A DNA stretch of 64,000 nt from the NCBI GenBank assembly GCA_000004985.1, contig GG738888.1. One strand, 5' to 3'. The notes below the pieces were generated by a model. It did not search any database. It was given only the letters and a program-made list of their open reading frames with translations, and had not been told where the DNA came from. Of the stretch, positions 4,734 to 55,186 are shown in pieces. This DNA is from Naegleria gruberi (taxonomy: Eukaryota). Numbering within the stretch: position 1 is the stretch's first letter; each line of letters starts with the position of its first letter. The position numbers and the translations under genes were made by a program.

Positions 4734-6365
4734 ATGCAAACAAGCAAATTGTTATCAACATCGAGGATTTTCCTTCTCGGATCAAGCAAATTATTTACTT
4801 GTGGTTCTAGAGTTGTTATTAGTCAACAACCGATTTTTCAATCAACAAGACCATTTAGTACTCAATTGAATAAGTTATGCTCGGAATCATCAATAAGAAA
4901 ATCCAAGCCTTCGTTCAAGAAGGAAAAATCCTTTGGAGCATCATCATCGGAAAAGAAGAATAAACCAATCAATATGGAAAAGAAAGATTTTCAGAAAAAC
5001 AAGGTTGCACCATCAACAATAGAAAAGAAAGAAAAGAAATTAACCTATTCACCAGAGGAGAAGAGTCACTACTTTCAACAAATTATATTTCCTTTAAGAA
5101 AAGCATTGAAAGAAAGAAATATTGAAAAGTGTTTATGGTTTTTTGAAAGTGAAGCACCAAAATATTTAGTGAGCATTCCAATTCAAGAAACCAATGAAAT
5201 GTTAGTTCTTTTGGGTGGTGTTGGTAATTTCAAAAAAGCTTATGAGATGTACTCTAAAGTTTTGGAAAAGTATCAAAGTAGTGGTGGAGCCAAACCTGAT
5301 ATTAACACTGTTGAGAGTTTGTTCTTTGCTGCCAAACAAAATAGAGATTTATCATCATTGAATATGTTGAAAAGATTGGAGGTAGTATTGTTGGACGACA
5401 TGGAAGCTCTTAATCTTAAATTGAATAATAGAATTTTCCACGATTTGATTGCTGTTATATTATATGGACTTAGGGGTTCACATAGTGCTGATTTAAAGTC
5501 AGCTCTCAATGGAGAAGAAGTAAGAGGAACTCCATACTTGGAATTAACATCTAAAACTATTTTGGAATTATATAACAAACTCACTAATAAGACCAAGTTT
5601 GTACATACTACAATGATTCAATATCTCCAAAAAATGGGTGATGTTGAATATATTTTCCATATCTATGATGAATTGAAGAAGGGAGAAAATTCTGTTGCTT
5701 TAGATACTACATTTTACAATACTTTAATTATGTGTTTAATTTCAAACAAATTTGAAACCTATGACGATGTTCTTTTCATGTTTGAAGTCTACAGAGAAAT
5801 GGTTGAAGTTGGTGGATGTAAACCTTCGTGTCACACATATAACATGATGCTTTCTGCTCTCAAAGTAGCTCATGAAAAAAACATGTTTGAAAATAGAATT
5901 GAGTACAAAGAAAAAGTTTATGGCCTCTATAAGGAAATTAATTTCAGATTGAATCCAATTGAAATAGATCCTCCACTATTGAACCTTCTTTCTCAATTGT
6001 TGAGCTATATAGGAAAGTTAAAAGAGTCTAGAGAGTTAATTAACGCACAACCTTTAAATATTACACCTTTAACCGTTCAATTTTTATTGAGAAAGGCCGT
6101 TACAGTTGAATGTGAATCTATTGGGGACTTTAAGGCTAATGTAGCTCCATTACTTGGCTTGCTTTCTGATAAGGGGTATAAGATGACTTCTGAATTTTTG
6201 AACTTTTTGGTATTGAGAATGTTAGATACCTACAAACCACTCAGAATTATTGAAATACTTGTTCAATATGTATACGAACATTTTGGAGTTAAAATAACGA
6301 TAGAACCAAGAACAGTCGAAAAGAATAAGATGGATTTCATTAAAAAATTAAGAGAGACCGTTTAA
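4734..6365 (+). CDS. Helical-repeat (PPR-like) protein, putative organellar RNA-binding
   Basis: Single exon, ATG at 4734. The N-terminus is basic and Ser-rich. There are repeated ~35-aa helical units with PPR-like spacing (...YNTLIMCLISNKFETYDDVLFMFEVYREMVEVGGCKPSCHTYNMMLSAL...). Its stop codon overlaps the stop of the convergent SCY1-like gene. Confidence 0.4.
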   Translation: MQTSKLLSTSRIFLLGSSKLFTCGSRVVISQQPIFQSTRPFSTQLNKLCSESSIRKSKPSFKKEKSFGASSSEKKNKPINMEKKDFQKNKVAPSTIEKKEKKLTYSPEEKSHYFQQIIFPLRKALKERNIEKCLWFFESEAPKYLVSIPIQETNEMLVLLGGVGNFKKAYEMYSKVLEKYQSSGGAKPDINTVESLFFAAKQNRDLSSLNMLKRLEVVLLDDMEALNLKLNNRIFHDLIAVILYGLRGSHSADLKSALNGEEVRGTPYLELTSKTILELYNKLTNKTKFVHTTMIQYLQKMGDVEYIFHIYDELKKGENSVALDTTFYNTLIMCLISNKFETYDDVLFMFEVYREMVEVGGCKPSCHTYNMMLSALKVAHEKNMFENRIEYKEKVYGLYKEINFRLNPIEIDPPLLNLLSQLLSYIGKLKESRELINAQPLNITPLTVQFLLRKAVTVECESIGDFKANVAPLLGLLSDKGYKMTSEFLNFLVLRMLDTYKPLRIIEILVQYVYEHFGVKITIEPRTVEKNKMDFIKKLRETV

Positions 6366-9208
6366 TATTCGTCATCAGAATCAGCTGCATGTCTAGACAA
6401 TAAAGCGTCGAAATCGTCCTCGACAACATTTGATTTTCTGCTTGGGAAATTGTAAGTACTTCTTTGTGGAATTACAGGGCTAGCATCATCGTCATTTTCA
6501 GAATCATGATGTAAGAAAGAGGTTGGAGAAAGAGGTTTGGAAATTGCTGGTTGGTAGGTAGTAGTTGGTTGAGGAGTATCTTCGTCATCAGAATCATCTG
6601 CAAACTTGTTCAAAATAGAGTCCAAACTACCTGGTTCTGGTTTAGAAGGAGCCAATTCAACTACTGGTTGACTGATTGGAGACTTTCTTGGAGAAATCTT
6701 AGTTTCTGATGAACGTCTTCTATCGTTATTTGTTACAACTGGTTTTGGTGGTTCATCATCTTCAGAGTCAGAATCAGCAAACTTCATTCTGGCAGCCATT
6801 TGATCCAAATGGATTTCTCCTGAATTGACTGCTGAAGTAACAGGCTTAGTTGCAGCAGGTTGAGAACTGAACACTGAGGAAGACATTTTCTTTTCTTTAG
6901 GAGATTCCTCATCGTCTCCTCCCCAATGTTTATCCATCAAAGAGTCAAAAAGCTTTGCATTTTCACGTTGAATTCTTTGTCTTTCCTCTTCTTCCTTTCT
7001 CAATCTTTCTTCTTCTCTTCTCAATTCTTCTTCTTCTTCTTGTATTCTGAGCAAGTTTTCCTTTTCTTGTTCATCCATAAACAAATTATTTTGATCTACA
7101 ACATTTGCTGGAACCTCATTCAAAATATTTTGAATAACATTTGGTTTCTTTGGATCTTGTGTTTGTGGTTTCTTTACAGTTGTTACAGGAGTTGGTTGAT
7201 TAAATGTTGGAGTTGGTTGGTTGAATTGAGGAGTAGGTGGATTAAAGGTTTGAGGAGGGTTAAAAGGTGGAGATGTAATTGCACTTGTTGGTGAGTCTTG
7301 AGGAATAAGTTGTGGCATATCAGGTACAGTGCTACCTGCCTTTCTATATTCATCATACCTGATCATTTCCATCATTTCAATCATGGTTTTCATGGCCTTT
7401 AAATATTTAGTAAATTGGTCAACATTCAAAGATGTTTGCACGGCAATTGGAGAAATTGAAGGCATTATTCTACATGCTATAATCTTAGTCAATCCTGGAT
7501 CATTTCTCTTTTGTAAAAGTTTAGAAATCTTAAGATAAACACCAACACAGGTAATTAAAAGTGGTGCAGAGAGTTGAGCACCAGATCTTTCAGCTCCATA
7601 AAGAGGAGCAAGAGATGATTCTAAAATTGGTATAATTGTAGCAGATATTACAGAGGTTTCAAAATGTGGTAAAATTTTGCCAAGACAAACAATACCATTA
7701 ATTCTTACACTTTGATTGTTAGTATTGTGACAAATCAACTCAATAGGTGGCAATAAAGTAGATTTGAAATCATCATAGGTCATTCTCTCTTCGTTCAAAC
7801 ATTCTTCACATCTCTTCATGGCTTCATTTTGAATTTCTGGGAACTTGCTATCTAGACATCTAATCAAGAATGGAATTAAACAAAGTCTATGGTCTTCATC
7901 AGTTGTCTTATTCCACATCAAGTTGAAACTTTCCAGAATTTTCAATGGAATTTTTGCAGGAGTGCTTTGCATCAATGCAAACTTTGAAAGAGTAGGCAAA
8001 ACTTGCTTACTAAATTCCTTGACTGTCATTCTTTCACTCAATACAAGTACGTTTGGCAATGCATGTAATAACATCTTTAAATCTTTGCATTCATTCAATA
8101 ATGGAGGTAAAATTTTAGAAAAGACAATACTGTTGGAAAATCCTTCATCTGGAATGTCTTCAACTCCATTAATCAATTGTTGAGGTTTAGGTGCTTTAAG
8201 CATAGGAGCAAGTGTAGACAAGAATTGTGCCTTCTTGACAGGCTCTCTAAGCTCCATACTGGCAAGATATCTCAATGCCCTAACTTCATTTCCGAATAAT
8301 AGTTCACAATTTGAAAGAAGGAAATGTGAGGTAGGTCTTTCCTGGTGTTTCAATGAGCATGAACTCAATAATGATTCTCTGATTTCTTGTGGAAGCTTGT
8401 TAATGTTCTTTACAACTTCATGCAATCTAGAAACGTTATTGGTGTATGCATTAATATCTTGATCAGATTCCAAAATAGAATGTGATTTTTCAAGAAGTAT
8501 TTGCAAATAAATAAGGGTAAAAGAAAAAATATCGGAAGAATTACAAGGATTTTGTTCTAACACATATTCAGGTGCTGTATAATCCAATGATGGAAGGAAA
8601 TCTCTTTTTTGAAAGTTTCTTTTGAAGAGAGTCGGTGCAGAGTTTGTTTCCGTAGATCCTAATGCTGTAAATGAAAAGTGAAATCCACTAATTTTCCAAT
8701 GACCATCAGTTGTAATATAAATATTATTTGGATGCAATCCAGCGTGAGTTAGTTTTGCATTTTGATGGCAAAAAGTTAAAGCTTCCATTACTTGACACAT
8801 TCCATACTTTAATTCCAACTTGGTTAAACGATAATTCTTCATCATTGGTGATACGTCAGGAATGTTTTGATGATTTCTAAACACTAAATTGTTCAATGAT
8901 CCTAGTATCGGTTCGGTTATCATCGCCAACATTGTTTTTGTTTCAAAGAATTGTTGTTGGGGAGACAGTATTAGAGGATGCCTGAGTTTTTGTAGCATTA
9001 GGCTTTCATTCTTGAAGTAATTTATCACAGTTTGAAGATTATTTCTTCCATAGACAGCTTCAATATCTTTAAAAGCACAACAAAACACAGAAACTTCCTC
9101 TCTTGTTTGTCTGTGAGTTCCGTTATGTATTCTCCAAAGGCAAAAAGGACCACCAGTTGCAAATGGTTTTTCTCCAATAGTATAATCCTTTTCTAATTGA
9201 TTGCCCAT
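6362..9208 (-). CDS. SCY1-like protein (N-terminal pseudokinase + HEAT repeats + coiled-coil/acidic tail)
   Basis: 948-aa single exon, ATG at 9208. The N-terminal kinase-like domain lacks canonical catalytic motifs (..QKLRHPLIL..., ...HAGLHPNNIYIT...). A HEAT region carries the SCYL-conserved ...NGIVCLGKILPHF... block. A charged coiled-coil (EEEEELRREEERLRKEEEERQR) and an acidic Ser/Asp C-terminus follow. Confidence 0.65.
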   Translation of the reverse strand: MGNQLEKDYTIGEKPFATGGPFCLWRIHNGTHRQTREEVSVFCCAFKDIEAVYGRNNLQTVINYFKNESLMLQKLRHPLILSPQQQFFETKTMLAMITEPILGSLNNLVFRNHQNIPDVSPMMKNYRLTKLELKYGMCQVMEALTFCHQNAKLTHAGLHPNNIYITTDGHWKISGFHFSFTALGSTETNSAPTLFKRNFQKRDFLPSLDYTAPEYVLEQNPCNSSDIFSFTLIYLQILLEKSHSILESDQDINAYTNNVSRLHEVVKNINKLPQEIRESLLSSCSLKHQERPTSHFLLSNCELLFGNEVRALRYLASMELREPVKKAQFLSTLAPMLKAPKPQQLINGVEDIPDEGFSNSIVFSKILPPLLNECKDLKMLLHALPNVLVLSERMTVKEFSKQVLPTLSKFALMQSTPAKIPLKILESFNLMWNKTTDEDHRLCLIPFLIRCLDSKFPEIQNEAMKRCEECLNEERMTYDDFKSTLLPPIELICHNTNNQSVRINGIVCLGKILPHFETSVISATIIPILESSLAPLYGAERSGAQLSAPLLITCVGVYLKISKLLQKRNDPGLTKIIACRIMPSISPIAVQTSLNVDQFTKYLKAMKTMIEMMEMIRYDEYRKAGSTVPDMPQLIPQDSPTSAITSPPFNPPQTFNPPTPQFNQPTPTFNQPTPVTTVKKPQTQDPKKPNVIQNILNEVPANVVDQNNLFMDEQEKENLLRIQEEEEELRREEERLRKEEEERQRIQRENAKLFDSLMDKHWGGDDEESPKEKKMSSSVFSSQPAATKPVTSAVNSGEIHLDQMAARMKFADSDSEDDEPPKPVVTNNDRRRSSETKISPRKSPISQPVVELAPSKPEPGSLDSILNKFADDSDDEDTPQPTTTYQPAISKPLSPTSFLHHDSENDDDASPVIPQRSTYNFPSRKSNVVEDDFDALLSRHAADSDDEY

Positions 9209-42134: not shown

Positions 42135-44915
42135 TCAAGTAAAAATTTTGGTGAGTGTCTCTGTTAGTATTCTCTTGGTTTCATCCAACAAATTTCCGTC
42201 TATTGGAGTCGAACGAACAGTCAACACTGAAACTGATTCTACCAACTTGTTTGATTTCTCAGTTAGTACAAAGTTAATGACAGGAATCTTGTTAATCTGA
42301 CATGCAGTGGCAACAGCTAATGTGCTTGGTGTTGGCGAACTTCCAACTAGAATAACAGCTGTTGCTTGTTGTTGTTGGATAGACATGTCAAAGTGATACA
42401 TGGTTTCAGCTGCAGAGCTCAGATTTGTTTGAGCTGTATCAAACTCTCTGCTCAACATGAAGTCATTGAACGACTTGAATTTTGTAATCTTGGATAATTC
42501 ATCCGAATCTATTTGGGCAATGGATTGATCGGCAACTCCCAGGCTATATTGAATAGTGAATGGTAACTCTAAACTACTTAACATTTTAAGAATAGTTCTT
42601 CCTTCATTTTGATTACTCAGGAAAACGAAAGCAGTTCTCAGATCATTATTTCGGTAAGAGTTCATTAATCTATTACCTCTCTGAGTTTCCTTTTGAATAA
42701 TAAGAGATCTTGCTTCACTGGTGCCTTGTACTCTTCCAGTTGTATCTCCATTATTACTAATTTGCATATAATCACCTGAATATGAATTTGTTTCTAGTGT
42801 TCGAGAAACTGGCATGACGAAACATCTTATATTGGCGTACTTTCTTGCATTGGAACATAGATGCCAGTCCTCTCCAGTGGCCCATGAGAACATCTTTTCT
42901 CTGAACAATAGTTTAACCCACTCCCTCTCCATGAACCAACTTCCACCGACAACATCCACCTCAATGATCTGTTCTGAACCAGAGACAGGTCCATAAAAAT
43001 AATCCTCAGCTGTTGGAGTTCCTTTCGTTCCAAGAATTCCTCTGTAATTATTGGTATTGATAGTGTGAATGGCTGCCTCTAAAAATCTCTTCTCAGGAAT
43101 GCAATCATCATCAAAAACAGCAATATACTTGGTTGGTGATTGTAGCGCAAGTTGAAATCTTCCAAAATATTTGAGCTGCATTTCTCCCTTATTGATAAAG
43201 AGTGAAATATTATTGGATGTGGCAAGTAACTTGGCCTCTTGTATTTCATTTTCAATCTCCTCTGCTTTAGGCGATGCAAAAAAGACCATCCAAACTACTT
43301 TAGGTTGATGAGTTTGTGAGAGGAGAGCTTGCATCCATCTCTTCACTAGACCTGTTCTCTTATACAAACCAACAACGACAGTGACAGAAAATTCATCAGA
43401 GGTCTTCGTTGCTGGAGTGTATGCGCTAGGTAATGCGAATAATTCTTGCATGGTGAGTGGATCTTTTGGTTTTGATCTTTCCAATAATTCCTTCTTTCTA
43501 CTTTCGAATGGTAAGAAATTTTGAGAGTAAACACTTTCTGCAATTGAATCTTGAATGAATTGAGTGGAACATTCACTAGATTCTGGTAATTTGGAGGTGA
43601 CAAAATCACGAACAATTTTTGAAATTCTCATGCTAGCTTTTCCATCTCCAAATATGTGTTTTGAAAGAATTAGTTTCGAATTTTGTGAATCCTTGATTGC
43701 GTCGGTCATGGCTTTCACAATGTGATGATAATTAACACCTATCTTTTTAATAGTTCCAATGTATATTCCCTCTGGTCTCTCAGTTGTATCTCGCATGAGT
43801 ATAACAGGTTTTCCAATACTTGCTGATTCCTCTTGAATGCCACCAGAGTCAGTAACCACAATGTCAGCTTCACTAATGACATGTGGAAAGATGTCATAGG
43901 CAATTGGATCAACTAGTTGGACATTATCCAAAGAAGATAACACTTCATGTACTACACTCTTAGCATTTGGATTTGGATGAACAGGTAGAATGACCATGAC
44001 GTTCTTACCAAATGTGTTGGAAATTGTTTTGATGGCATTACACATCTCTTTAAAGTGTGGAATGTTCTCTCTTCTGTGCATGGTAACAAGAATTACAGTT
44101 CGATGTGAAGATGTAGTCGCATCAACATGCTTGGTTTTAAAACTTCTGATGTTTTGAAGCAACTCTGGAATTATTTTTGGTGGGAGAGACTTTAAGGAAT
44201 AGAACGAATCAATACCAGTGTTACCAGTGACATGCACATGCTGTGGACAGATGCCTTCTCTAACAAGAGCTGCTTTAGAAAATTCTGTTGGAGCGAACAA
44301 GAGACTGGCAAACGAGTCAATCACTTTACGATTCAACTCCTCTGGGAATGGACTATTGAAATCATAAGATCTCAATCCAGCTTCTACATGTCCAACTGGT
44401 ATCTTTAAATAACTGGCTGCAAGGGCAGCAACAAGAGATGTAGTTGTGTCGCCTTGAACCAACACCATGGAGATTGGCCCTTGCTTTTCAAATTCTAAAC
44501 TAATCTTTTGGAAGGCAAGTGTGAAGAAAGAGGAGATGCTTTGATTGGGAGTCATTAACTTCAAGTCAATGTCCACATGTTGATGAAATACACCAAGAGT
44601 TTGCTTTAAAATCTCACTATGTTGACCAGTACTCAACACAATCACCTCCAATTCAGAGTGATGGTTTGACTTGAGATGTGAAATTAGTGGAGCACATTTG
44701 ATAGCTTCTGGTCTTGTTCCCAAAACTATGACTACTCTTGGCATGTTCTTCTTGTGAGGAATGAGAACACTTTCATGGTTTTCATTGGAATGTGGTCTGA
44801 CCAGAACAACATCTGAATCAATAGCTGACTTGTTAGTTCTCAATAGAAAAAAGAAAACGAAACTAATCACCAATAATGTTGCACACACAATAGCGAGCTT
44901 AAATATCTTACTCAT
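42135..44915 (-). CDS. Type II membrane protein: UDP-GlcNAc 2-epimerase (non-hydrolysing, WecB/MnaA-type) fused to a GT-A (GT64/EXT-C-like) glycosyltransferase domain plus an unknown C-terminal domain
   Basis: 926-aa single exon with an N-terminal signal anchor (LAIVCATLLVISFVFFFLL). Epimerase_2 hallmarks are present: ...VVIVLGTRPEAIKCAPL..., ...STGQH..., ...HVEAGLRSYD..PFPEE.NR..., ...HRREN..., ...DSGGIQEE..IGKPVILMRDTTERPEG... A second domain follows, with ...FSVTVVVGLYKR...KYIAVFDDDCIPEKRFLE...VDVVGGSWFM...ATGEDWHLC... It resembles the GT64 (EXTL2/EXT C-terminal) DxD fold. Confidence 0.75.
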   Translation of the reverse strand: MSKIFKLAIVCATLLVISFVFFFLLRTNKSAIDSDVVLVRPHSNENHESVLIPHKKNMPRVVIVLGTRPEAIKCAPLISHLKSNHHSELEVIVLSTGQHSEILKQTLGVFHQHVDIDLKLMTPNQSISSFFTLAFQKISLEFEKQGPISMVLVQGDTTTSLVAALAASYLKIPVGHVEAGLRSYDFNSPFPEELNRKVIDSFASLLFAPTEFSKAALVREGICPQHVHVTGNTGIDSFYSLKSLPPKIIPELLQNIRSFKTKHVDATTSSHRTVILVTMHRRENIPHFKEMCNAIKTISNTFGKNVMVILPVHPNPNAKSVVHEVLSSLDNVQLVDPIAYDIFPHVISEADIVVTDSGGIQEESASIGKPVILMRDTTERPEGIYIGTIKKIGVNYHHIVKAMTDAIKDSQNSKLILSKHIFGDGKASMRISKIVRDFVTSKLPESSECSTQFIQDSIAESVYSQNFLPFESRKKELLERSKPKDPLTMQELFALPSAYTPATKTSDEFSVTVVVGLYKRTGLVKRWMQALLSQTHQPKVVWMVFFASPKAEEIENEIQEAKLLATSNNISLFINKGEMQLKYFGRFQLALQSPTKYIAVFDDDCIPEKRFLEAAIHTINTNNYRGILGTKGTPTAEDYFYGPVSGSEQIIEVDVVGGSWFMEREWVKLLFREKMFSWATGEDWHLCSNARKYANIRCFVMPVSRTLETNSYSGDYMQISNNGDTTGRVQGTSEARSLIIQKETQRGNRLMNSYRNNDLRTAFVFLSNQNEGRTILKMLSSLELPFTIQYSLGVADQSIAQIDSDELSKITKFKSFNDFMLSREFDTAQTNLSSAAETMYHFDMSIQQQQATAVILVGSSPTPSTLAVATACQINKIPVINFVLTEKSNKLVESVSVLTVRSTPIDGNLLDETKRILTETLTKIFT

Positions 44916-45768: not shown

Positions 45769-46170
45769 TTATTTACGCTTGTAGAGATCGAATTTCTTGT
45801 TTCTCTTTCCACCTCTTCTATTCTTTCTATTCTTTCTATATTTTCTATTCTTCTTTCCATAAGTATCAAATCTTCTCTTTCTATTGTAATTTCTCTTCTT
45901 CTTTCCATAGACATCAATCTTCTTTCTGATAACTCTCTTCTTTCCATATCTTCTCTTCCAGCCCTTTCTCTTTCCGTAGGTGTCCAAATATTTGTGAACC
46001 TTTCTATTCTGTCTGTTTCTTCTCTTAACTCTGTACTTTCCCTTATTGTTCTTTCTAATGTACAAGGAGAGAGTTGATGCTTGTTCTTCAGCACTTACTT
46101 CACTAGTGAATGAGAGTGCAAACACAAGCAATGTCAAGGCAATCAATAGAATTGAGACGAATCTTTTCAT
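45769..46170 (-). CDS. Small secreted polycationic repeat protein (signal peptide + K/R/Y-rich tandem repeats)
   Basis: 133 aa. It begins with a signal peptide MKRFVSILLIALTLLVFALSFTSEVSA and a short acidic spacer. About 5 tandem repeats of the form D-x-Y-G-K-K-x-R-x-Y-x-x-x-R-R follow, roughly 50% Lys/Arg with regular Tyr. The DNA shows the matching ~50-60-nt direct repeats (ttctattctttctat...). Confidence 0.5.
   Translation of the reverse strand: MKRFVSILLIALTLLVFALSFTSEVSAEEQASTLSLYIRKNNKGKYRVKRRNRQNRKVHKYLDTYGKRKGWKRRYGKKRVIRKKIDVYGKKKRNYNRKRRFDTYGKKNRKYRKNRKNRRGGKRNKKFDLYKRK
45780..45960. repeat. Tandem direct repeats (coding) underlying the K/R/Y repeat protein
   Basis: Visible reiteration of tcttctattctttctattctttctatattttctattcttctttccata-like units. 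The nested antisense ORFs 45757..46077 and 45765..46094 are artifacts of this repeat. Confidence 0.5.
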
Positions 46171-47089: not shown

Positions 47090-50000
47090 ATGTTAAAGTG
47101 GTGTGTCCTCATAATTATTCTTCTCTCAACCATTTTCACATCACATGCACAATATGTCACACAAACAGTGGCAGGTAATGGAATTTCCCAAAGTTTGGGA
47201 GATGGTTTTCTTGGAACACAAGCGAGTTTAAACAGTCCAAGAGATGTTGCTCTTGACATGTATGGTAACATGTACATAGCTGAAGAGAAGGCACACAAGA
47301 TTAGATTCATAAACAAGACAACAGGTATTATTTCAACATTGGTTGGAAATGGCATTGCTGGAAGTGTTGGAGATGGTGGATTGGCTATTAATGCACAATT
47401 ACATTTACCATTCTCTCTAGCAATTGATTCGACTGGTCAAAATTTGTTCATTTCTGACAGTGGAAACCATGTTATTCGTCACATTAACATGACAACACGT
47501 ATCATTTCAACTGTTGCTGGAACAATGCGTAGTCCTGGATTTGGTGGTGATGGAAATATTGCCACACAAGCACTATTAAACACTCCTAGAGGAATTAGAC
47601 TTGATTGGAAGGGAAACATTTATATTGCAGGTAGTGTAGTTTATTGACAATTTAATACTTACAATAATGCAAGATACTTCAAATTGTGCCATTAGAATGG
47701 TCAATAGAACTAATGGGCTCATTTCAACCATTGCTGGTAAGGGATCAATTTGTGGAACTAAATTATTAGGAAATGGTGGATTAGCAAATAGTACAACACT
47801 TTACAATCCGTTTGGTGTTGCGGTCGACTCATTTTTCAATGTTTATATTGCTGAGAGTTCTGCAAGTGTTATTCGATTTGTTGATAAATCAACAGGTATT
47901 ATTTCAACATATGCAGGTGATGGCTCTCCAGCATATAGCGGGGATGGTGTATTGGCAAGTCAAGCTAAATTGAATTATCCTAATTTTGTAACTATTGACA
48001 ACTTGTCAAATAATCTTTTAATTGCTGACACTGCTAATTTTGTAGTAAGATATGTGAATAGAACAACTAGAATTATATCGACCATTGCAGGATATAATGT
48101 TAATGGAAATAGTGGTGATGGTCTTCCAAGTAAGCAATCATCCTTTTCTTCCTTATTTGGAATAACAACAGACATGGAAGGAAATGTATACATTGTAGAT
48201 GCACCGAATTCTGTTGTTAGAATACTAATCAAAACATGTGATAGCTTATTATTTACCTGTAATAATCATGGTTCATGTCTTTCATCCCAAACTTGTAAAT
48301 GTAATTATGGATGGAGCACAGAAACATGTATCCAACCAACTTGTTTTGGTATTTTAGCAACCACTAATGTGGCATGTAGTGGACATGGAAAATGTTCATA
48401 TGTGGATTTATGTGAATGTGATATGGACTTTTTTGGTAATGAATGTGAATTCTTTAAATGTTATGGAATTAATTATAATAATCAATCTGTGTGCAGTAAT
48501 GGTAGAGGAAACTGTTCTTCACCAAATAATTGTACTTGTCAGAATAATTATTTTGGTAATGAATGTGAATTAACAACTTGTTATGGAATTGAAAGTAATA
48601 ATTCCAAAGTATGTTCTGGAAATGGTAAATGTATAGGAAAGGATGAATGCTCATGTATGAATGGGTATGTTGGCGACTATTGTCAGCATACTGTTTGCTT
48701 TGGTATTTATGGAAACGAAACATGTTCTTCTAGAGGAAGTTGTATAGCACCTGATAATTGTGAGTGTTTGGATGGCTACGGTGGCAGAGATTGTAGACAT
48801 TATGAAGTTTTTATGGATTTTGAAACTGTTTCCATTCATTCATCTCATCATCTGTTAATGAGAAAGTTAACAAGTGACTTATTGGAGTGTGGAGAGATAG
48901 TATCAGAATCGGATATATTAAAATTGGGGGAGAAAGATTCCCTTAAATGTTATTGGAGGGAATTAAGTGGATTTAGAATATATTTAGGCTATAATCATAA
49001 TATAACACATGGTTCAGTTTTAAATATCATGAATAATCTATTGACCATACATGTTAATGCATCTATTTCAGATCAAATTAGAAAAAGTAATGAAAATGGT
49101 GTTGTAATAGGATTTCCACTTGATGTATTTCCAACTAACAAGGATTTATTAATTAGATCTCAACATGATCAACACTATAATAATTTTAAATCAGTTTCCC
49201 AGAATTGGAAATTTTCTACAGTTATTCGTAATACAATTCATCCAATTCAAGAATTACTAGATAGAAACGATAACAAACCGATCGTTATCATTCCATCAAT
49301 TAATATTTCGGATCTTCAATCACTAACCATATCAACATTGACAATCAATGATTTATCAATTCAATCAACAAGTGAAAGAACATTTGCATTTGAGAAATCA
49401 AAGGATATTCCATCACAATTTAATATTTGGAATGAAATTAGTTCACAATCTTATTACCAAGATTGTATAGGACATAATTGTATAGTTGAATCAACATTAA
49501 TTGGAATGAAAACATCACTCACTTATTCTTTTAATGGATTTTTAATTGTAAAAAGTAAAGAATTTCAAAATAGACAAATATTTAGAATTACAAACAAAGT
49601 TGAAAATGATTTATTGAAAGAAAATTACAAAGGAACAATGCAAGTAGTAGGATTGAATTTAAATTCATACTCTTCTTCTTATTATCAAGTTGATTTGACA
49701 TATTCATCATTTGACATGTTGGATATTTATCTTGTTGGAATTAACAAGACATATTCTAGAAATGAGGCTATTGTTTTATCTACTTCTATTATTGATCCCT
49801 TTGTGTTTACCTACTCAGATATTAATAGTTTTAAACAAAGATGGTCATATCAAAATTCAATTACTAAACAATATGATTCAATTTTTGGAAGTCAGCTCTA
49901 TATTGCACCGCTACCTGTTGGATTATATGATATTTCGTTAAACGTAACTACGAAGTCCAATGTTTATACTTTTTATGGTAAAATTGATATTGTAAATTTT

Positions 50001-53000
50001 GAAAATATTCCATCTATTAACATTAAGCACGTTCCAGCAATTTATCCCTTTGGATCGAATATATATATTGAAATGTCTATAAAGAGCGACATTCCAATCA
50101 AGAAAATTCAATGGAAGTTACTAGAGGGAAAATTTGATAGCAAGCAATCACTAACTAACAATTATAATGAAATTCTAGAACAATCATTTAATCCAATCCC
50201 ACATTTTGTAAATACGCAACAATATATGTTAAATATTGAAAAAAAATATTTGATTGAGGGTGAAAGATATCAATTTCAAATAGTGGCATGGAATGAAAAT
50301 GGTCAATATGCTATCTCTAACATTTCAACACGTATTGATATGTCTCCTAGATTTTGGTGTGATATTTATGATCCAATTGGAGAAAATAAGGCATTTACCA
50401 GTACGTTTGTCGTTAATTGTGTGAATACTATTGCGGAGAGTGTATCTAGTTATTGGATTGATGTTTGGGATAATGATACAAGATTGATGATCTTGTCAAA
50501 TACTCAAAAAAGAACTTTTATTACAAAATTACCATTTACCAAATCTGGTTATTTGAATATTGGTATTAAACTTATCAATATGAATGGTTCATTTTCAAGA
50601 ATATTTAGAAAGGTGAAGGTTAATAATCCTATTTCTGATCTTTCACTACAATCTAGAATTAATTTTATTTTTTTAAATTTTAATATTATAATTGAAGAAC
50701 CTATTTCCATAGATACTATCATTAAACTATCTTGTCTTCTTTCTCTAATTGATAAGAATGATGATTTTACAGAATTAAATTCTGTTGATAAGAATATACT
50801 TGTAAAAAGTTTAACATTATTAATAACAAACTTGGATAAAATTCAACAAATTGCATTAAATGTTGATGACAAGCTAATTCAAATCATTCTTCCACTCCTT
50901 TCCAAAGTTACAACAATTATTCAACACATATCATTACAATCTATTAGTGAAACTGTATTATTACAAAATATTAAGTGGATAATAAGTGGTTACAAAAATA
51001 GTTTTCAATATTATTCTCCTTATATTATGAATCATTTATTAGATTTTACTCATGCTCAAGAATTGGAAACATTGTTTAAGACGTTATTGGTTAAAGGAGG
51101 TGGAATGAAGTCAACAGAAATGCTTCCGAATGTTGTTAATATTATACGCAGGTCCTATTTCAGTAGTGGGCTGGGTTTACAAAATCAAACAATTTCTAGA
51201 ATTTTCAATTCATTTGGAGCGAAGGGATTTTATGAAGAAATTGATACTGCATTACATTTATTAAATGGAAAACAATTCAATTTCCATTCTAATCAAGAGG
51301 ATATTCAAATAGATTTCAAAGTTTTAAACGATGTTCAATATAATCTAATTACTCCTTACAAAGTTAATTTGATTTCATATACTACCAAATCATATTTGAA
51401 CGTATCAGATAGTGTATCTTTGGCATTCATGTATGAGACTGGTGAGATAATACCTACTACAAGTTCTAAATATTCCACAGTTCAAATCAAATTCAATAAT
51501 GTGACACTAACTCTCGAAGAGGATAACATTTCATTATTGAAAGTTTTTTGTGTATCATATGATTATAGTAAGGATACTTGGAACACTGATGGAATTGAAA
51601 CGATATTTAATATTACACAAATCATGAATAGAACTATTACATTAAATGTAACTTGTCAATATCTATCATCTGTGGGCTTGACAACAATATCAATTCAAAA
51701 AGGTTTTTCAACCTACAGAAATACAAGTAGTAGTATTATTCCAAATACTCCACAATCAGATAAGATAATAGCGATTGTAGTGCCTATTTCAATATTGTTA
51801 CTCATTTCCATTTTAGTAATTCTAATATGTATAGGAATTTACTATTACAGAAGTAGATATTGGAGCAAAAGATTGAAAAATGAAAAAGAAATGGAACAAA
51901 AACTCTTAGAAATTGAATTGGAATTGAATGATAAAAACCCTCAACCCATATCCTATCTAATTCCCATTGAAGAATTGGAGTTGATAAAAAAGATTGGAGA
52001 AGGAGGGTTTGGCCAAGTTTACCTTGCAAAATGGAAACATGTTCAAGTTGCAGTGAAATGTGTCAGTAATTATGAAGATGAAGAACAAATAGAACAATTC
52101 AACGGAGATGATATGGAAGATGCATTTGAAAAGGAAGTTTTATTGTTAAATAGTTTAAAACATCCAAATGTTATTCACTTTTTTGGAGTTTGTCTTACTC
52201 AAACTAAAAAGTTAATGATTATGGAATATTTGGAAGGTGGGTCATTGGATAGAATTGTTTCAGAACTTCGTTTAAAAAGAAGGAAAATGTTATTGAGAGA
52301 AAAGATTAGAATATTGTTTGGTGTTTCGAATGGAATGAGTTATTTACACAATTTGAAACCTTCATCTATTATTCATAGAGATCTCAAGACGGCAAATATT
52401 CTACTTGATAATTACATGCAACCAAAAGTGTGTGATTTTGGATTATCAAAATTGATTGGAAATAATAATTCAACAACAATGACTACTAATTTAGGAAGTA
52501 TTTTTTATATGGCAGTAAGTGTTACTATATTACTATTTGCTAATTATGGATAGCCTGTAAGTTTTTTGTCGATATGGATGCGATTTAAATATTAAGGAAT
52601 TAATTGGAGATGGCTATCAAAATATTACAAACAAACTTGATGTGTACAGTTTTGGAATTATCATGTATGAACTCTTCTTTGAGGAAAATCCATTCCTTAA
52701 TCAAAATTCAAAGAAAATTCATCGGTTCTCCTCCAATTCATCATCTTCATCAAGCTCGTCAGAACAATCAATGGAATTGAATAGTTTTAGCGTACCTGTT
52801 CGAGTATTGAATGGAGTTAGACCTAAAATACCCTTCTCTAATATGATTGAACAAAGACAGTGGATATCAGAGTTTATGAGTGACGATTATGACCATGAAA
52901 AGAAGAGTGATATGAAAACAATCAATGATTTGTGTAAACTTGTGGATGATTATATCATGTTGATGAAAATGTGTTGGGATGTTGATCCTGAAAAAAGACC

Positions 53001-53058
53001 ATCTTTTGATGAAATAGGACAATATTTGGCTGATGTAATGTCTAACTATCAACTTTAA
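47090..53058 (+). CDS. Receptor-like protein kinase (TKL-type) with extracellular NHL-repeat beta-propeller and tenascin-type EGF repeats, 3 exons
   Basis: Exon 1 is ~47090-47630 (signal peptide MLKWCVLIIILLSTIFTSHAQ plus NHL repeats). A 43-nt GTAGTG...AG intron follows. Exon 2 is ~47674-52514 (more NHL repeats, about 6 EGF-like Cys repeats of the form C..HG.C....C.C..G..G..C, a long extracellular region, TM IIAIVVPISILLLISILVILICIGIYYY, and kinase subdomains I-VIII: IGEGGFGQVY..VAVK, HPNVIHFFG, IIHRDLKTANILLD, CDFGLSK). An 82-nt GTAAGT...AG intron follows. Exon 3 is ~52597-53058 (...DVYSFGIIMYEL... to the end). Confidence 0.65.
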
Positions 53059-53122: not shown

Positions 53123-55186
53123 TTACAATAGAATGAAGGTACATCCAATTAGGACGAAACAAAGTGCAAAAACTATGAGTGATCCCACGATCAGTGTTAC
53201 ATTGGAATCATTTCTCTTTGTTTTAGTTTGTACTTTGGTATATTCTCTCATTAAATCATCATCAGAAAATCCATAAAGCTCATCAATAGATTCATCATTT
53301 CCTTCTCCTTCACCTTTGCTCGTGCTAACAACTTGCTTCCATTTACTTCTCAATTCTCTAACCTTTCCCAATATCATACCATAAACCTCTTCCTGCCGCT
53401 CTCTACCATAAGTGTTCACACTAACATCTTTCAGATATTTGTCTTTGAAATCGTTAGGTAGTTGATTTTTGGGAGTGTCAAAATCTCCAATAAGATCAAA
53501 CCTAACGACATGCTGAGCGGGAACCACTTGATATGTGTTTTCATCTCGCAAAATTGAATCAACTTGTTTTTCTGTTGAATATTTCACTGTGAAATTGGGT
53601 GAGTTACTGGTGGGCTGATATGAGAAGACACCAGTTGTTGTTATTTGAGCTTTGTCTGTACGTTTTTTGAATTTGTAATCAAATAGAACCTTCATTACTT
53701 CGTTGCTTTCATTAACATGTAAATCGTCAGTTGTTCCTCTTTTAGATTGAATAAAGTGAACTAAATGTTTGTCATTACCCACAAATATGATGCATGAATC
53801 AGCACTTGGTGTCTGAGGAGCATTCTTTCTCATTGTAAACTCTTTTGGAGTGCTCTGAATGACATCATGAACAGAACCAAAAGCATTTCCTTCAAGAACT
53901 TTGAAATTCTTTGGACAATAATAGTCAACACCATCTTTCCTCATTATCAAAGAACTATTGTTGATATGTTTGGTAACATATGGCCAATACTCTTTCAAAA
54001 ATCTCAAACCTACATCGCATATTTCATTGGCGTCTGGGCTATATTCTGGAGATAATATTGCAAGATCAATTGGTAGGACTGGAAGACAACGAATGAGCTC
54101 TGTAATAGTAATGAGAGGTGTTCCCTTTTCATTTAAATGAATCCAACCATTTCTATTCATTCTCTCCTTATCAATGGACTCAATTCGCAAATTATTTGAT
54201 AGATAGTCACTGTAAATTGCTTCATACAGCAGATTCATCAAAAATAAAGGCTTTTCAGGGTTCAAATTTTTCCAATTTAAACAGAATGTTGTGAAACCAG
54301 TTTCGTATTTTGCTGCAATTTTACATAAATATTTCCAACATTTGCCTTTCGCAAAATCAAAACGATCCTCAGTCTCAGTCATTTTCTTAACTCTGTCTGA
54401 TGCCCTGCTATAAATTCTTTTTGGTAACGTCCAACCATTATAAATTGTTTCAACATGCTCGAATACTGTTTTGGTGTCAGAAATGCCAGTGGATTTCCCC
54501 CAACTCCAGCTTTTAACAAACTCTGTACACAAACCAGGATGTCCTCTTAGTAAATTGAAACAAAGTTTGAATAGGTAGGTCAGTATTGAATTTGATGGAA
54601 AGGCCATGTTTTGTAAAAAGATATTAATTTGATCATCATTCCAATAAGCAAGCCTGATCCATTCTGTTATATCTGGATTCAAATATTCAAACATAACTGC
54701 TGATTGACTAGTAATTGCAATCAGAACAAATGTTTGTTCACACAAGAATTGGAGCATCTTTCGGATAGTTTCTTGTCCAAAACGTTCAACAATTCTATCC
54801 AAATCATCAAATTGTAAGAGTAGATCATTGGCTGTTCCTTTTAAATTTGTCAAAAGTGTCAAGAGATTTTTATCATCTAAATTCACCGATGGTTGACTCT
54901 TCAATAATTTAAATACTAATTCCTCTTCATTTCTCACAGAAGCCAAGTCTAACAAAGAAACTCTATCAAATGATATGTTAACAATGGAAAGTTTATCACT
55001 ATTTGATGTATGATATTCCTGAAAGAAACGACTCTTTCCAATTCCCTTCACACCACAACAAACAAATATACGTTTCTTATTGGCGATGGATTTGGCTAGA
55101 AGTGTAGATTGAGTAGCATTCTCAATGTAGGTTAACGTTGGTGGTGCCATTTTTTTTAAAGTGTCATCATCTTTACTAATCGCCAA
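53123..55186 (-). CDS. Tail-anchored P-loop NTPase of unknown family (687 aa)
   Basis: Single exon. Walker A is FVCCGVKGIGKSRFF and Walker B-like is LLLQFDDLD. A large C-terminal region holds the conserved RGHPGLC and ...LPIDLAILSPEYSPDANEICDV... blocks, and a C-terminal TM anchor (LIVGSLIVFALCFVLIGCTFILL) follows. A tandem paralogue lies immediately upstream. Confidence 0.55.
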   Translation of the reverse strand: MAISKDDDTLKKMAPPTLTYIENATQSTLLAKSIANKKRIFVCCGVKGIGKSRFFQEYHTSNSDKLSIVNISFDRVSLLDLASVRNEEELVFKLLKSQPSVNLDDKNLLTLLTNLKGTANDLLLQFDDLDRIVERFGQETIRKMLQFLCEQTFVLIAITSQSAVMFEYLNPDITEWIRLAYWNDDQINIFLQNMAFPSNSILTYLFKLCFNLLRGHPGLCTEFVKSWSWGKSTGISDTKTVFEHVETIYNGWTLPKRIYSRASDRVKKMTETEDRFDFAKGKCWKYLCKIAAKYETGFTTFCLNWKNLNPEKPLFLMNLLYEAIYSDYLSNNLRIESIDKERMNRNGWIHLNEKGTPLITITELIRCLPVLPIDLAILSPEYSPDANEICDVGLRFLKEYWPYVTKHINNSSLIMRKDGVDYYCPKNFKVLEGNAFGSVHDVIQSTPKEFTMRKNAPQTPSADSCIIFVGNDKHLVHFIQSKRGTTDDLHVNESNEVMKVLFDYKFKKRTDKAQITTTGVFSYQPTSNSPNFTVKYSTEKQVDSILRDENTYQVVPAQHVVRFDLIGDFDTPKNQLPNDFKDKYLKDVSVNTYGRERQEEVYGMILGKVRELRSKWKQVVSTSKGEGEGNDESIDELYGFSDDDLMREYTKVQTKTKRNDSNVTLIVGSLIVFALCFVLIGCTFILL

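Follow-up and report, generated by a model that had tools for sequence, protein, structure and literature searches.

The locus at 47090-53058 of a 64,000-nucleotide (nt) stretch of Naegleria gruberi DNA (contig GG738888.1; the whole stretch is called the window here) raises a simple question. Three plus-strand open reading frames (ORFs) lie there in series, and they could encode separate proteins or a single one, which would then have to be identified. The best explanation is one gene, the annotated NAEGRDRAFT_80821 with one added 5' exon, whose product would be a type I single-pass receptor-like kinase. We consider this explanation likely, and the judgement is a joint one, given to the gene model, the architecture, the mosaic origin and the proposed working taken together. 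The predicted protein harbors, in this order, a signal peptide, a six-bladed NHL propeller, five teneurin-type EGF repeats, an FN3-like array, a GAIN-like domain, a transmembrane (TM) helix and a TKL-like kinase. A public N. gruberi protein, XP_002673750 (EFC41006; P0130), is 100% identical and gapless to residues 189-1947 of the spliced model, and the window is therefore assigned to N. gruberi NEG-M. An earlier annotation made from the letters alone (the sequence-only reading) had considered a social amoeba and proposed to follow expression during aggregation, a check that does not apply to this heterolobosean organism.

The three ORFs span 47090-47647, 47667-52553 and 52642-53058. Removal of 47631-47673 and 52515-52596 yields an uninterrupted coding sequence of 5844 nt with a single terminal stop, encoding 1947 amino acids (aa), so that the single gene with introns of 43 and 82 nt proposed by the sequence-only reading stands. 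The 82-nt intron is already contained in the public N. gruberi model; the 43-nt intron is found in no public model. The predicted gene is organized as follows:

47090..47630, plus strand: exon 1, with the start codon, the signal peptide, NHL blades 1-2 and the first half of blade 3; missing from the public model.
47631..47673, plus strand: intron 1, 43 nt, GT..AG, phase 1, splitting NHL blade 3.
47674..52514, plus strand: exon 2, with the remaining propeller, the EGF repeats, the beta-sandwich region, the GAIN-like domain, the TM helix and kinase subdomains I-VIII.
52515..52596, plus strand: intron 2, 82 nt, GTAAGT..AG, phase 0, between YMA and ELIG.
52597..53058, plus strand: exon 3, with kinase subdomains IX-XI and a Ser-rich insert; stop codon at 53056-53058.

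The frame is kept across both junctions, which read ATT TAT ATT GCA G/GTAGTG...GCAAG/AT ACT TCA at intron 1 and TAT ATG GCA/GTAAGT...ATTAAG/GAA TTA ATT at intron 2. An alternative intron 1 of 40 nt (donor at 47634, giving IYIA-GN-TSN) is also in frame, and it was rejected for its poorer fit to the NHL consensus than the IYIA-D-TSN produced by the 43-nt intron. A pseudogene is ruled out by the intact 5.8-kb ORF and the full set of catalytic residues.

The public model, a 'predicted protein' of 1759 aa, is identical to the present one over exon 2 from residue 189 on, and it starts at the internal Met189 (position 47697, MVNRTNGL), lacking exon 1 and with it the signal peptide and 2.5 propeller blades. 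It may be asked whether this annotation is correct, in which case 47090-47647 would be a separate small gene or a decayed exon. The JGI/NCBI model does open at MVNRTNGL, and the 43-nt intron that would join exon 1 to the rest is short, has a weak donor and is known from sequence only. Against this start, the public model would have to place 30 EGF cysteines, 27 N-x-S/T sequons and a type I TM helix in a protein with no signal peptide, and it opens in the middle of NHL blade 3, keeping 3.5 blades. Exon 1 supplies a signal peptide together with exactly the 2.5 blades that are lacking, and every full-length paralogue opens with a signal peptide followed by NHL repeats. In addition, the strongest single Pfam NHL match in the protein (aa 163-187) spans the exon 1/exon 2 junction at aa 180/181; splicing thus creates the canonical blade GNIYIA/DTSNCAIRMV and restores the best-scoring repeat of the protein. 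A start at Met189 is therefore regarded as highly improbable, and the predicted 5' extension by exon 1 as well supported. If it is true, the public N. gruberi model is truncated, with its signal peptide and 2.5 blades lost.

Part of the gene has been recovered from an environment as well. Positions 1-2687 of a metagenome contig (L001; ENA ERZ929261, ERR1078381, k127_249005) correspond to window positions 47819-50515 with 98.3% identity, a span that excludes both introns. The two sequences differ by 34 substitutions, 16 synonymous and 18 non-synonymous, with 19 of the 34 at third codon positions, a pattern suggestive of purifying selection of moderate strength. Deletions of 3 nt, of 1 nt (window position 48015) and of 8 nt (window 49299-49306) are also present in the contig and split its ORF into three gene calls, those of 1 and 8 nt breaking the frame.

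The N-terminal head of the predicted receptor comprises three elements:

47090-47149, plus strand: signal peptide, aa 1-20, MLKWCVLIIILLSTIFTSHA, with Q as the next residue.
47153..48236, plus strand: six-bladed NHL beta-propeller, aa 22-368, containing intron 1 (Pfam TEN_NHL, E 2.5e-30; NHL).
48237..48797, plus strand: five teneurin/tenascin-type EGF repeats, aa 369-555 (Pfam EGF_TEN, EGF_2, EGF_Teneurin).

Six NHL repeats of about 58 aa each are delimited by internal repeat matches, and the count reaches six only if exon 1 is included. The signal peptide and the roughly six NHL repeats had both been recognized in the sequence-only reading. Its EGF/tenascin-like assignment holds too, with the number corrected from about six to five, since each repeat carries six regularly spaced cysteines and the total is 30. 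The NHL blades (47153-48236) also share 40-47% identity with the repeats of certain bacterial NHL proteins, which are very large (Acidobacteria/Bryobacterales-type) and carry the annotation 'sugar lactone lactonase YvrE'; in the first search these scored above all eukaryotic matches. Either similarity to a repeat consensus or an ancient bacterial origin could explain this likeness.

Between the EGF repeats and the membrane there is an ectodomain of about 980-1000 aa, which the sequence-only reading had described as a very long extracellular region. The length is right, and the region was found to be structured, with an FN3-like array followed by a GAIN/GPS-like domain that this reading had missed:

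48798..50627, plus strand: family-specific beta-rich region with invariant Cys pairs, aa 556-1165.
50628..51722, plus strand: GAIN-like domain, aa 1166-1530, predicted to have a helical subdomain and then a beta subdomain.
51549..51710, plus strand: degenerate GPS (GPCR proteolysis site, GPCR being G protein-coupled receptor) motif, aa 1473-1526, CVSYDYSKDTWNTDGIE...VTCQYLSSVGLTTISIQ, without the HL-S/T triad.

The first of these regions is probably an array of FN3/Ig-like sandwiches; its structure model has a mean predicted local distance difference test score (pLDDT) of 54.5, enough for an 'FN3-like' call only. The second is of greater consequence. In five paralogues, the segment that precedes the membrane follows the pattern C[VIF][YF].D....W...G......(Y/F).(L/M).C...HL[ST].F[ST][VI], which is that of the GPCR proteolysis site. 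When a profile of the six-member family was compared with all 177,635 distinct Protein Data Bank (PDB) sequences at E values up to 10, the sole match was the adhesion GPCR F1 (ADGRF1); it falls exactly on the GPS motif of that receptor (E 0.01), where HLS and HLT are aligned. Scanning of the 76-82-aa segments before the TM helix against Pfam returned GPS (PF01825) as the top family in six of six members, with full-length matches in the five paralogues (model positions 2-44/45, E 2.8e-4 to 0.018, 16-21.8 bits). In the window protein the motif ends at aa 1526, directly N-terminal to the TM helix that starts at aa 1545, and one of the two canonical GAIN disulphide pairs is retained, equivalent to the C801-C832 disulphide of latrophilin described by Araç et al. 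(PMC3321182). At the site aligned to HL[ST] the window protein reads ...VTCQYLSSVGLTT... and has no His, in contrast to the HLS or HLT of the five paralogues. If this is indeed a GAIN domain, the window copy should not self-cleave, because the HL-S/T triad is lost. Cleavage is not universal among accepted GAIN domains either, that of BAI3 being uncleaved (PMC3321182).

The assignment of aa 1166-1530 to the GAIN family has to be weighed against a lineage-specific domain of helical and beta parts, unrelated to GAIN, whose GPS likeness would be convergent or due to chance. Several results pull in that direction. All the Pfam GPS scores lie under the gathering score of 22.5 bits, and the window copy (E 0.066, 14.2 bits, model positions 3-22/45) covers only half of the motif. 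Its GAIN model, built from a multiple alignment of 6 sequences, is moderately confident (pLDDT 63.9), and a Foldseek comparison of that model with the PDB gave no significant match and no GAIN domain in the top 50. At E 10, direct Pfam scans yielded no useful match for the mid region or for the GAIN region, the GPS family surfacing only with the short segments before the TM helix. What speaks for kinship is that GPS tops the Pfam list in all six members, at full length in five and immediately before the membrane, that the ADGRF1 GPS is the only PDB sequence match, and that both the C...W...G...C-x3-HL[ST]xF pattern and the C1-C3 pair agree with the crystal-structure description (PMC3321182). 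An unrelated domain is accordingly thought unlikely, though not strongly so, and the GAIN-like assignment quite probable.

The membrane and cytoplasmic parts of the predicted receptor consist of two features:

51765..51845, plus strand: single TM helix, aa 1545-1571, followed by the basic stretch RSRYWSKRLK.
51978..53019, plus strand: TKL-like kinase domain, aa 1616-1935, containing intron 2 (Pfam Pkinase, E 3.6e-52; PK_Tyr_Ser-Thr, E 3e-48).

The single TM helix and the TKL kinase of the sequence-only reading are both borne out. The kinase motifs comprise GEGGFG at 1622, VAVK with K1642, the alphaC Glu in FEKEV, HRDLKTAN with D1750, DFG at 1768, YMAE with E1795, DVYSFG and CWDVDPEKRP at 1920. 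The full catalytic set is thereby kept, namely the G-loop, K1642, the alphaC Glu, the Asp and Asn of the HRD loop, DFG, the APE Glu, the Asp of subdomain IX and the Arg of subdomain XI. The sequence-only reading had named a kinase devoid of catalytic residues and not joined to the ectodomain as one outcome that would speak against it; the residues are complete and lie in the one spliced ORF. The closest PDB sequences are CTR1 (1.2e-35), TAK1, TNNI3K, MLK1/4, RIPK and ZAK, all of them TKL kinases. The kinase is classed as TKL-like on these matches, on Pfam, on the HRDLKxxN loop and on the CW..P..RP motif. A receptor tyrosine kinase is ruled out, given that the loop reads HRDLKTAN and not HRDLAARN or HRDLRAAN, and that tyrosine kinase structures score under the TKL ones.

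As the sequence-only reading had pointed out, YMAE (aa 1792-1795) stands in the place of APE. Its E is the first codon of exon 3 (GAA), and since this codon directly follows the AG acceptor, no Pro can be encoded in YMAE. N. lovaniensis protein P0128 has the identical sequence GSIFYMAELIG, and its neighbour P0135 has the same one broken at that place by an in-frame retained intron of 60 nt. Since YMAE and the position of the intron are both kept across species, they are not an artefact. It could be argued that the protein is chiefly an adhesion molecule whose kinase is catalytically impaired by this replacement. The APE proline is indeed lost, and two paralogues (P0047 and P0134) are clear pseudokinases, with HAN or HGN. 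Against impairment, all other catalytic residues of the window kinase are kept, and N. lovaniensis kinases with an overall identity of 62-65% keep YMAELIG, which indicates selection. Impairment of the kinase is for these reasons held to be improbable. As a separate observation, the introns in the window TKL kinase and in the CAMK/NEK-like kinases of its paralogues lie no more than one codon apart, after YMA in the former and after FM in the latter, and this shift coincides with the lost APE Pro. Intron sliding or coincidence could account for it.

The sequence-only reading had called for relatives with the same ectodomain, and these were found in Naegleria. When the non-repeat part of the ectodomain was used as query against 1.84e9 cluster representatives in an exhaustive HMMER search, ten proteins were returned, all named ones from Naegleria, with E values of 2e-87 to 2.3e-69 to four full-length proteins. 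The ectodomain family thus appears to be confined to this genus. Word-indexed searches with the mid region alone, or with its six-sequence alignment, gave no matches although homologues exist. Four to five other Naegleria proteins, 2167-2807 aa long, are colinear with the window ectodomain and have its overall architecture and invariant Cys pairs. With the N. gruberi and N. fowleri paralogues the colinearity extends over about 1500 aa, and identity is 26-32% over about 1000 aa of ectodomain. These paralogues are NAEGRDRAFT_70317, NAEGRDRAFT_49308, P0005 and P0047 of N. gruberi and FDP41_013523 of N. fowleri. They have the NHL, EGF, beta-array, GAIN-like and TM parts in the same order as the window protein and differ from it in keeping HL[ST] and in having many more NHL and EGF repeats. 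Their kinases are also different, being either CAMK/NEK/ULK/STE-like, with HRD[IV]KPSN and SPE (best matches CAMK1, ULK, NEK and STE20), or pseudokinases, and they are only 23-29% identical to the window TKL kinase. P0047 and P0134 of N. gruberi, with HAN or HGN for HRD, a degenerate Gly loop and an intact HLS GPS in the ectodomain, are the predicted pseudokinases. The public models of two other N. gruberi proteins (P0005 and P0123) stop a few residues past '...GTP[IL]FM', reading into an unspliced intron, so that their kinase is truncated at subdomain VIII.

The cytoplasmic part of the window protein has other relatives. From RYWxKRxKxEKEMEQKLLEIELEL to the C-terminus, including YMAELIG, it is 62-65% identical to N. 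lovaniensis P0128 and P0135, in which the position of intron 2 is also kept, spliced in P0128 and with 60 nt retained in frame in P0135. These two proteins, EGF-TM-TKL kinases encoded in tandem (C9374_001521 and C9374_001518), share the juxtamembrane coiled stretch, YMAELIG, the position of the Ser-rich insert and the position of the intron, and they also have teneurin-type EGF repeats. They differ from the window protein in having no NHL propeller, beta-array or GAIN-like part, but another, unannotated N-terminal domain of 430 aa, and their EGF repeats abut the TM helix. Because the cytoplasmic part is 62-65% identical to this EGF-TM-TKL family, as against 23-29% to the kinases of the ectodomain paralogues, the gene is a mosaic that joins two families of Naegleria receptor kinases at the TM helix or immediately past it. 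One ectodomain scaffold combined with kinases of different groups would offer a route for receptor repertoires to diversify in this free-living amoeboflagellate, a relative of the pathogen N. fowleri, in which the family has one member.

The small Naegleria family is more interesting than the derived member in the window. It can be proposed that Naegleria has a small family of receptors, kinases as well as pseudokinases, whose single TM helix and kinase are directly preceded by a genuine GAIN/GPS that probably cleaves itself, and that in the window gene a TKL kinase was swapped in and the cleavage site was lost, a proposal for which our confidence is evenly divided. GAIN domains have been studied almost wholly as the activation switch of adhesion GPCRs and PKD1. 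If the proposal is true, a third kind of membrane signaling module would be coupled to GAIN, after the seven-transmembrane (7TM) adhesion GPCRs and the eleven-transmembrane (11TM) PKD1-like proteins, GAIN would be placed in Discoba, and a shedding or tethered-peptide mechanism could gate a kinase. The phylogenetic range of GAIN would also be widened by a GAIN-like domain that is coupled to kinases in so distant a protist. The family would provide a natural set of variants (cleavage-competent, cleavage-dead, active kinase and pseudokinase) that could be used to test the role of GAIN without a 7TM module.

The working proposed for the window protein is that the NHL propeller and EGF head would bind an extracellular ligand or surface, whereas the FN3 and GAIN-like stalk of about 1000 aa would keep the head away from the membrane and stay uncleaved in this copy. 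Ligand-driven clustering may then activate the TKL kinase through trans-phosphorylation of its Ser/Thr-rich activation loop (NNNSTTMTT). Self-cleavage of the GAIN domain, known from adhesion GPCRs and PKD1, is probable in those paralogues that have HL[ST]. In bacterial PknD-type kinases the NHL propeller is an extracellular sensor, and in teneurins NHL propellers act as interaction modules. The protein might instead act mainly on endocytic or phagosomal membranes, with a lumenal 'ectodomain', signaling on vesicle contents. Dictyostelium VSK3 is reported to have such an endocytic/phagosomal localization with a lumenal ectodomain, surface and lumenal exposure imply the same topology, and Naegleria is a phagotroph. 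Against it, the sequence favors neither site, and a vesicular site, which we think unlikely, would refine the localization and leave the architecture of the receptor unchanged. Both the cell-cell or particle recognition and the dual specificity advanced in the sequence-only reading are conjecture.

Apart from the points on the GAIN domain, the single-gene receptor kinase proposed here is weakened by four considerations. The 43-nt intron is a prediction, and of the two donors its GTAGTG is the weaker. The 1-nt and 8-nt deletions of the metagenome contig may mean that the gene is dispensable or decaying in a related strain, or they may be an assembly error. The missing APE Pro could affect substrate binding. 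Finally, ligand, localization and kinase activity are all predictions.

The surroundings of the gene in the window can be summarized as follows. Upstream, on the minus strand, a 926-aa ORF (42135-44915) encodes a fusion of two domains, a UDP-N-acetylglucosamine 2-epimerase (E 2.4e-95) and a family 2 glycosyltransferase, and a 133-aa ORF (45769-46170) encodes a signal peptide followed by Lys/Arg/Tyr-rich repeats (...YGKK.R.Y.RK...). The segment 45650-46250, just upstream of the receptor kinase gene, shows extreme strand skew (GC skew -0.5, AT skew -0.48). Downstream lies a convergent minus-strand ORF of 687 aa (53123-55186), whose end is 65 nt from the kinase stop codon and which has a weak P-loop match (AAA_22, E 5e-4) and a C-terminal hydrophobic tail; because its 'start' is TTG, it probably has a further exon upstream. 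Another protein kinase gene, unrelated to the first, is found at 6362-9208 on the minus strand (948-aa ORF, Pkinase E 7e-18).

How does this receptor compare with known systems? The gene was already public as an uncharacterized, truncated model. No description of GAIN-kinase fusions, of Naegleria receptor kinases or of NAEGRDRAFT_80821 was found in the literature searched, which was incomplete and did not extend to InterPro/UniProt automatic annotation. That literature describes GAIN for 7TM and PKD1-type proteins alone, and in Dictyostelium and Tetrahymena. Among teneurins and tenascins, the Pfam teneurin NHL and EGF models match the head of the window protein best. Membership in these families is ruled out, since the protein is type I and not type II, has a kinase, and gave no sign of a YD/RHS shell, of Tox-GHH or of a fibrinogen globe. 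An adhesion GPCR is ruled out by the single TM helix followed by a kinase, with no 7TM module, and the PKD1/REJ family by the single TM helix, by FN3-like folds only and by the lack of REJ, PLAT or PKD-channel Pfam matches even at E 10. In its predicted working the protein is closest to a receptor Ser/Thr (TKL) kinase, with a stalk that is GAIN-like.

Mycobacterium tuberculosis PknD combines an extracellular six-bladed NHL propeller, a single TM helix and a Ser/Thr kinase, with the kinase N-terminal and the propeller C-terminal. The coupling of sensor, membrane and kinase is the same as in the window protein, but the order in PknD is reversed, its kinase is a bacterial Hanks kinase without EGF, FN3 or GAIN, and the whole proteins are not homologous; one bacterial match in the NHL search was itself named PknD. 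The Dictyostelium DrkA-D/VSK proteins are single-pass receptors with a TKL-group kinase. Plant RLK/Pelle receptors such as CERK1 and LYK3, both among the PDB matches, likewise join a single pass to a TKL-group Ser/Thr kinase, whereas the window kinase matches best the MAP3K types of the Raf/MLK/TAK1-like kind (CTR1, TAK1, MLK), and its ectodomain is unrelated to theirs. In adhesion GPCRs and PKD1-like proteins (BAI3, 4DLO; latrophilin, 4DLQ; ADGRF1), GAIN is followed by a 7TM module or an 11TM channel-like module. The window copy, which unlike these has lost the HL-S/T triad and the second half of the GPS and scores under the curated thresholds, is followed by one TM helix and a kinase.

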